A DNA stretch of 64,000 bases from a virus (taxonomy: Duplodnaviria; Caudoviricetes): the IMG/VR virus record IMGVR_UViG_3300014208_000024, positions 64,001-128,000 of that record; one strand, 5' to 3'. Below are positions 12,655 through 12,800 of this stretch, one piece after another. The position numbers and the translations under genes were made by a program. Positions within the stretch are counted from its first letter, which is position 1, and every line of letters starts with the position of its first letter. The notes under the pieces are model-generated. The model ran no database searches and was not told the origin of the DNA. It was given only the letters and a program-made list of their open reading frames with translations.

Positions 12655-12800
12655 TGGCTTGAGTTGATTATGAATCAACATCTTGCATTGTAGTCGGAAC
12701 TCATTAATAATGCGTTTTACAAACGATTTGCGTTTCAGTGGCCTTTTTACTCCGTCCTCTTTAACGATACAATGTTATTTTAACATTAAACTACCAAGCC
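12655..12800 (-). ncRNA. tRNA-like RNA with anticodon loop replaced by a 75-nt domain
   Basis: GGCTTGG/TCAAGCC acceptor, GTTT/AAAT D stem, CATTGTA/TACAATG extended stem, GTTGA-TTCATAA-TCAAC T arm. Confidence 0.65.

Follow-up and report, generated by a model that had tools for sequence, protein, structure and literature searches.

The DNA analyzed here, hereafter the window, is a stretch of 64,000 nucleotides corresponding to bases 64001–128000 of a 372,283-base virus record, a giant groundwater phage whose whole 372-kb genome carries ~47 tRNA genes. On the minus strand of the window, inside an apparent Pth2–Rid operon of tRNA look-alikes, lies the gene of a 146-nt RNA built on a tRNA body (Table 1). 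Upstream of it on that strand are the Pth2-like gene, two miniature tRNA shapes that lack anticodon arms, a tRNA whose anticodon loop is short and a 185-nt RNA with no D arm; downstream are the Rid-family gene, a 149-aa gene, a long tRNA-bodied RNA and a tRNA with an amber anticodon. A TAnnTTTG box ahead of Pth2, together with a boxA-like GTTCTTTGA, suggests what we take to be one stable-RNA-type operon of a Bacteroidota host. The 146-nt RNA ends in ACAA, which is also the commonest post-acceptor sequence in the ordinary tRNA genes of the phage (16 of 42), and about 20–30 nt separate this end from Rid in the window.

Several neighboring features recur among relatives. The Pth2 gene opens with ATG-NNN-TAG (window about 13580–13588, minus strand), as it does in L015, L018, L019, L023 and L026, and amber-anticodon tRNAs lie nearby. 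The minus-strand tRNA at 12998–13067, whose anticodon loop is shortened or closed, is kept with variable sequence by all close relatives and by the array on contig L222. Short inverted and direct repeats of the TGTCCAGA / TCTGGACA type precede the amber tRNA (11420–11545) and vary in copy number among relatives. A conserved structured non-coding element that follows the long tRNA-bodied RNA in three relatives (L215 about 4170–4310, L216 about 1790–1920 and L018 about 1540–1660) is missing in the window.

Anatomy of the 146-nt RNA

In the 146-nt RNA, a folded four-way domain occupies the anticodon position of a tRNA body. A preliminary description of the locus had listed an extended anticodon helix (CATTGTA/TACAATG, then TCG/CGA), a 75-nt insert and a CGTTT/AAACG hairpin. 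All of these stems are present on the minus strand, exactly 75 nt separate the two 7-mers, and the hairpin is supported by homologues. The same description had called the tRNA arms intact, which is correct insofar as acceptor, D and T arms are present, but the elbow is non-canonical: the window copy has G18 but U at position 19, its T stem is closed by A53-U61, and its T loop, UUCAUAA, lacks A58. The bulged C that it reported in the extended helix does exist, although among the four known copies only those of the window and contig L021 keep it. A third hairpin and a self-complementary GGCC tetramer had been missed. A gene on the plus strand of the same interval was rejected, as it shows no tRNA elements (z = −1.68). 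Because the window sequence taken alone folds no better than its shuffles (z = −1.36), homologues were needed to assess the fold.

Table 1. Features of the 146-nt RNA, its neighborhood and the handle-bearing loci (window positions, except for the last row)
Feature	Position	Strand	Remarks
tRNA-bodied RNA gene, whole	12655–12800	−	146 nt; G1 = 12800, discriminator A = 12655, then CAA
Acceptor stem, 5′ strand	12794–12800	−	GGCTTGG, pairs with TCAAGCC 12656–12662; A73 follows
D arm	12777–12791	−	4-bp stem, loop without GG pair; U8, A14 and A15 present
P1 (extended anticodon helix), 5′ strand	12765–12774	−	CATTGTA-TCG
Purine-rich strand	12752–12764	−	UUAAARAG-RAY, conserved; may form weak alternative hairpin
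Hairpin 1	12737–12751	−	weak; AGU/ACU stem, A-rich 9-nt loop
Self-complementary tetramer	12740–12743	−	GGCC; proposed intermolecular kissing site
Hairpin 2	12721–12735	−	AAACG/CGUUU, CAWAU loop
Junction strand	12717–12720	−	GUAA, invariant
Hairpin 3	12698–12716	−	length variable, 4–9 bp
P1, 3′ strand	12686–12696	−	CGA-C-TACAATG, bulged C at 12693
T arm	12663–12679	−	non-canonical KUCRYAA loop, no A58
Neighboring tRNA body	11546–11753	−	~135-nt anticodon domain, two palindromic loops; 28/51 pairs with double changes
Neighboring acceptor + T-arm RNA	12809–12993	−	185 nt, no D arm; acceptor covaries
Pth2-like gene	13175–13552	−	head of apparent operon; PF01981 match
Rid/YjgF-family gene	12193–12636	−	directly downstream of the 146-nt RNA; PF01042 match
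Ro60/TROVE gene	19255–20760	−	6.5 kb upstream; PF05731; own Y-type RNA near 20900–21010, handle at 20996
TAnnTTTG box	13641–13648	−	ahead of Pth2
boxA-like GTTCTTTGA	13092		
Handle family, genome G000	47855–48008 (−), plus 24110, 33714, 34789, 35112, 46587, 49038, 84996, 338529		GTGGYNA...RGTTACWTCG

Homologues and comparative support for the fold

Three homologues were found on other phage contigs (L021:444–593, L024:457–602 and L222:7212–7349). Rid homologues led to syntenic contigs and thereby to L021, a covariance model of L021 and the window copy found L024, and a pattern from these three copies retrieved L222 from IMG/VR. L021 is 92.7% identical to the 146-nt RNA, as compared with 73% at third codon positions of the neighboring gene. 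L024 occupies the same slot before Rid and scores only 25 bits with the two-sequence covariance model, below some ordinary tRNAs; L222 scores 56 bits with an insert model built without it. Because L222 matches the model independently and is intermediate in sequence, it validates L024 as a homologue. The tRNA look-alikes around the L222 copy form a different array, and a Pth2 gene and an amber tRNA lie 3.5 kb away. Among 12 intervals upstream of Rid, some of them partial, three contain the 146-nt RNA and other tRNA-shaped RNAs fill the slot elsewhere, with gain and loss of whole units among relatives and no insert-less copy of this tRNA body found. The window copy matches L021 throughout a 56-nt core and departs from L222 there at five positions. 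A second groundwater study yielded a short contig that spans 12599–12782 with identical letters and so adds no covariation.

The family thus has four known members only. Models R1 and R2 detected no further member over 34 related viral records, GenBank phages gave no match, exact-pattern scans of IMG/VR and GTDB returned chance matches only, and Rfam searches at E ≤ 1 to 5 with the window copy and its three homologues gave no match over the RNA. Two weak matches in G024 were discarded as AT-rich sequence without a tRNA body, and one in L223 because it falls within a protein gene. We found no paper or Rfam family describing this RNA in the literature covered, which omits most subscription journals. 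That it is a real, selected RNA we hold with high confidence.

The extended helix, including its TCG/CGA segment, bears out the preliminary description on covariation: pair 35:106 reads C-G, C-G, U-A and G-C in the four copies, and pair 29:113 changes from U-A to C-G in L021. With the tRNA body fixed, the window, L021 and L024 all fold at lowest energy into this helix, and L222 forms the cloverleaf plus extended helix in unconstrained folding; a possible alternative fold, with a 5′ hairpin plus GGA/UCC, is 1.4–2.8 kcal/mol worse in three copies. The interruption of the helix differs between copies, being a 5′ G bulge in L222 and another interruption in L024. The acceptor stem has 7 bp in the window and L021; in L222 and L024, regular pairing is confined to its outer 4 bp. 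All four copies lack the D-loop GG and share the KUCRYAA T loop; as read from sequence, this departure from tRNA is conserved on both sides of the elbow and is not recent decay.

Within the anticodon domain, every scored cell of hairpin 2 is paired in the four copies, with one double and two single-sided changes, and hairpin 3 forms in all four with differing sequences. Hairpin 1 has the same stem in L021 and L222, is not clearly formed in L024 and is marginal in energy. All five core differences between the window and L222 are compatible with pairing: C35U is matched by G106A, C69U turns a C-G into a U-G pair, G48A fits either of two weak stems, and the remaining two are the adjacent G59 and C60. 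A shuffle control of the four-sequence alignment gave only a moderate result (23/500). Covariation supports a non-decoding tRNA body on an extended helix, and the comparison shows an RNA gene that is structured, under selection and non-decoding, with a tRNA as its frame. Its architecture, likewise shown by the alignment, is a tRNA chassis with a 10-bp extension of the anticodon stem leading to a multi-way junction, two firm hairpins and a purine-rich segment with a self-complementary tetramer.

A self-complementary tetramer and probable self-pairing

The substitutions G59U and C60A convert the GGCC tetramer of the window and L021 into the GUAC of L222, and in L024 the corresponding alignment columns likewise read GUAC. 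The adjacent middle bases are therefore G-C twice and U-A twice, within an invariant outer G-C. Because adjacent bases are unable to pair within one chain and complementarity is nevertheless kept, the change argues for pairing between molecules. Kretsch et al. (10.1101/2024.12.08.627333) used this adjacent-base covariation argument for the bridges of GOLLD and ROOL, and the corresponding pattern, a symmetric loop with adjacent-base covariation, is found here in four sequences, probably from one event. The predicted self-duplex is weak for GUAC (−2.0 kcal/mol) and reaches −6.3 kcal/mol for GGCC. Counting against self-pairing are the small number of sequences, the probably single GGCC/GUAC change and the marginal hairpin 1 of the window copy. 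Judged from the alignment, we consider it probable that the 146-nt RNA self-pairs, forming a homodimer through the tetramer.

The principal rival, which we regard as unlikely, retains the same conserved tRNA-chassis RNA but makes it monomeric, with an incidental palindrome and a tetramer that belongs to an internal hairpin or to a loop bound by protein. In L222, GUA can pair with UAC inside hairpin 1 (−1.4 kcal/mol), and a comparable internal pairing is available to L024, so that GUAC may not be exposed; moreover, ~14% of shuffled inserts contain a chance loop palindrome, and a tandem substitution can be a single event. Against this, the window and L021 lose the internal pairs yet keep self-complementarity, and their tetramer lies within AGGCCA, of which ~0.015 occurrences are expected by chance in the insert of the 146-nt RNA. 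In the wider class of insert-bearing tRNA bodies, moreover, GGCC and AGCU are the loop palindromes that occur most often.

This class was sampled by scanning loci around relatives of the 149-aa gene, which yielded about 50 tRNA bodies carrying long inserts. Of 47 bodies, 27 have a GC-containing palindrome of 4 nt in a predicted hairpin loop, compared with 6.7 ± 2.3 after shuffling; with one member per sequence cluster, the figures are 23 of 38 and 5.3 ± 2.2 (maximum 13 in 100). These inserts are not homologous to that of the 146-nt RNA; the enrichment backs the principle of self-pairing rather than this RNA directly.

Two neighbors in the window belong in this comparison. Over nine sequences of the RNA at 11546–11753, the stems covary strongly, one loop is invariably AGCU and the other is AGCU in five and GGCC in four. 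Self-pairing fits this RNA better than an intramolecular loop–loop contact, because the invariant loop does not follow the AGCU/GGCC switch, and it is better material than the 146-nt RNA for kissing-loop tests. It also has weak homologues in distant phages such as L152 and L091. In the RNA at 12809–12993, CAGCUG is invariant in five copies; the other AGCU loops are variable, with palindromes broken in some copies, a point against self-pairing.

Further tRNA-bodied RNAs were noted on related contigs. L021:260–436 and L023:2788–2974 are orthologous and switch two 6-nt loop palindromes, from AACGUU to AGCGCU and from AGCGCU to GAGCUC. Another occupant of the slot (L019:2792–2955, L020:125–287 and L215 about 2893–3056) has an invariant AGGCC loop plus a GGCGC loop. 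In the RNAs at L143:1892–2354, L144:2708–2882 and 6738–6894, and L147:4295–4474, the anticodon is recognizable and the long inserts include a second GTTCGAA hairpin that resembles a T loop; such inserts may be genuinely removable and form a separate class.

Competing readings and a proposed role

The preliminary description had seen in the locus a Y RNA topology in unpermuted form and, speculatively, a ligand of Ro60; the bulged helix would bind phage Ro60 and tether the tRNA-like module. The ordinary 5′-to-3′ tRNA order and open acceptor agree with an unpermuted molecule, but the canonical elbow and the bulge are not conserved, and UUCCGA near the bulge, which resembles the GUCCGA of animal Y RNAs (PMC4201824), becomes UUCAAU in L222. 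A Ro60 gene does lie in the same genome on the same strand, misfolded RNAs without a motif are also bound by Ro60, and Y RNAs are diverse enough that some escape searches (PMC4201824). Yet the distance to ro60, 6.5 kb, exceeds the 4 kb within which Y RNA genes lie (Chen et al. 2014, PMC4201824), RF02553 (YrlA) has no match over the 146-nt RNA even at E ≤ 10, and the elbow that is conserved in YrlA (10.1101/312249), with two D-loop guanines and a UUCRA T loop, is degenerate in all four copies, which have a single D-loop G and the KUCRYAA T loop. All four also lack GNCGAA and the handle described below. In the window copy, none of GNCGAA(N)G, CGAA and GUCCGA occurs; CGAA appears once among the four copies, at the T-stem/acceptor boundary of L222, and is not conserved. 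Similar palindromic RNAs occur, moreover, in near-complete phages without a TROVE match (G012, G019 and G025), where a host Ro60 or a missed match is possible. The L222 contig, 18% complete, shows neither TROVE nor handle within that fraction. YrlA Y RNAs (RF02553; PMC4201824; 10.1101/312249) and phiLo Yrl1/Yrl2 (PMC12135203) do share with the 146-nt RNA an anticodon-loop-less tRNA-like module on an extended anticodon helix and a Ro60 gene in the genome, but YrlA is circularly permuted, has a canonical elbow and the GNCGAA motif and lies near ro60, none of which holds here. We therefore find the Ro60 proposal poorly supported and the reading as a whole improbable.

In this phage, a GTGGYNA...RGTTACWTCG handle recurs at nine other loci; one of these lies immediately upstream of ro60 and another next to the best YrlA match in the genome (44.9 bits, below the cut-off). 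These are likely the Y-type RNAs of the phage, and we infer that the handle binds Ro60. The one at genome 47855–48008 (−) is an unpermuted tRNA body with a handle, so that the concept of the preliminary description does occur in this phage, at a different locus.

Still less likely is a tRNA gene with an unusual intron, whose exons the phage RtcB or Rnl2 would join after some endonuclease had cut the intron out. In favor of it, the anticodon loop is where the insert lies, RtcB, an Rnl2-type ligase and a CCA-type nucleotidyltransferase are all phage-encoded, and inserts of this kind were called introns in Lak phages (10.1101/356790). However, of 48 enumerated joins in six stem registers, none gives a canonical Y32-U33...R37 anticodon loop in any copy, and the anticodons implied by possible joins disagree between copies. 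No bulge–helix–bulge or group I core is seen by inspection, Rfam finds no intron, and EndA (PF01974) was not found in the phage. The exons are themselves non-canonical, with the acceptor broken in two copies, and the relatives gain and lose whole units rather than offering an insert-less allele. ARAGORN and Rfam do not call the 146-nt RNA as a tRNA, and it departs from the G18-G19, G53-C61, U54-A58, anticodon loop and regular 7-bp acceptor expected of RF00005. Splicing of this RNA is thus very improbable.

Coding and other catalogued functions fare no better. There is no reading frame conserved across the copies, and the core changes are non-synonymous in open frames; the mini-ORF and SD-like purine run of L024 are not kept in the other copies. 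In the tRNA-like domain of tmRNA, acceptor and T arm enclose a non-tRNA domain that replaces the anticodon loop. The 146-nt RNA likewise encloses a domain but has a D stem, no conserved tag frame and no ARAGORN call; because its third acceptor pair is C3-G70 and not G3-U70, tmRNA-type alanylation is excluded. Resemblances to hammerhead, twister, pistol and c-di-GMP RNAs, judged by eye against consensus sequences, fail in the homologues.

A cis-acting, t-element-like processing signal, cut to release or stabilize the Rid message, would account for why the window, L021 and L024 copies all lie immediately before Rid. The L222 copy, though, precedes an unrelated gene in a different array, most relatives fill the slot with other tRNA-shaped RNAs, and conservation is higher in the insert core than in the tRNA body, which leaves this reading as unlikely as the intron. 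A decayed tRNA pseudogene with a random insertion, to which the weak single-sequence fold and the absence from most close relatives might point, is largely refuted by covariation and is highly improbable, given that conservation exceeds the neutral rate, that compensatory changes occur and that remote copies share the deviant T loop.

On balance, we favor the view that the 146-nt RNA is a non-decoding, tRNA-derived small RNA that probably self-dimerizes. It would be co-transcribed from the promoter ahead of Pth2 and excised in the manner of its tRNA neighbors, the chassis providing processing and stability. Two copies would then pair head to head through the 4-bp tetramer, probably braced by the invariant A-rich strands, by analogy with the symmetric kissing loops of GOLLD and ROOL. 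In the last and weakest step, the dimer would present two uncharged, anticodon-less tRNA ends and might act as a decoy or scaffold for host proteins that bind or attack tRNA during translation stress. Such a role in a translation-stress operon, suggested by gene context only, is a tentative proposal.

GOLLD (RF02032) and ROOL are phage non-coding RNAs that lie in tRNA arrays and multimerize by symmetric kissing loops and A-minor contacts (10.1101/2024.12.08.627333; PMC12990946). The 146-nt RNA resembles them in this setting and in the adjacent-base covariation signature, but they are several times larger, have no tRNA frame and share no sequence with it; their Rfam models do not match it, and their multimerization is shown, whereas here it is inferred. 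The 146-nt RNA would work like a small self-pairing RNA of the GOLLD/ROOL style fused to a tRNA mimic, but it belongs to none of the GOLLD, ROOL and YrlA families. The ‘enigmatic’ tRNA introns of Lak megaphages (Devoto et al., 10.1101/356790) are likewise longer-than-normal tRNA-like genes with conserved inserts outside any Rfam class. Those inserts were read as introns of typed tRNAs, with one insert-less allele described, whereas the 146-nt RNA has no anticodon-giving splice, no empty allele and a deviant body.

More speculatively still, large phages might harbor a widespread, hitherto undescribed class of tRNA-chassis RNAs in which the anticodon arm has turned into a module for self-assembly. 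Each would have its own palindrome (GGCC, GUAC, AGCU, GAUC or GCGC) and form homo-oligomers whose several uncharged tRNA ends would counter host tRNA-directed defenses as a multivalent sponge or scaffold. If so, some phage ‘tRNA introns’ would be never-spliced self-assembly domains, and unexplained long inserts in the tRNA genes of giant phages could alternatively be folded domains that pair between molecules. The present case also shows that many phage RNA genes are overlooked or wrongly labeled by tRNA finders. At 146 nt and with a natural compensatory pair, GGCC/GUAC, this RNA offers a much simpler system than GOLLD or ROOL in which to ask why self-assembling RNAs are retained in phage tRNA arrays.

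Two observations concern the phage genome at large. It encodes a separate GOLLD RNA (genome G000 41517–41900, minus strand; 226.6 bits, above the Rfam cut-off). CCGG and CGCG have zero occurrences in 372 kb (expected about 122 and 68) and CTAG is halved, which suggests restriction-site avoidance.
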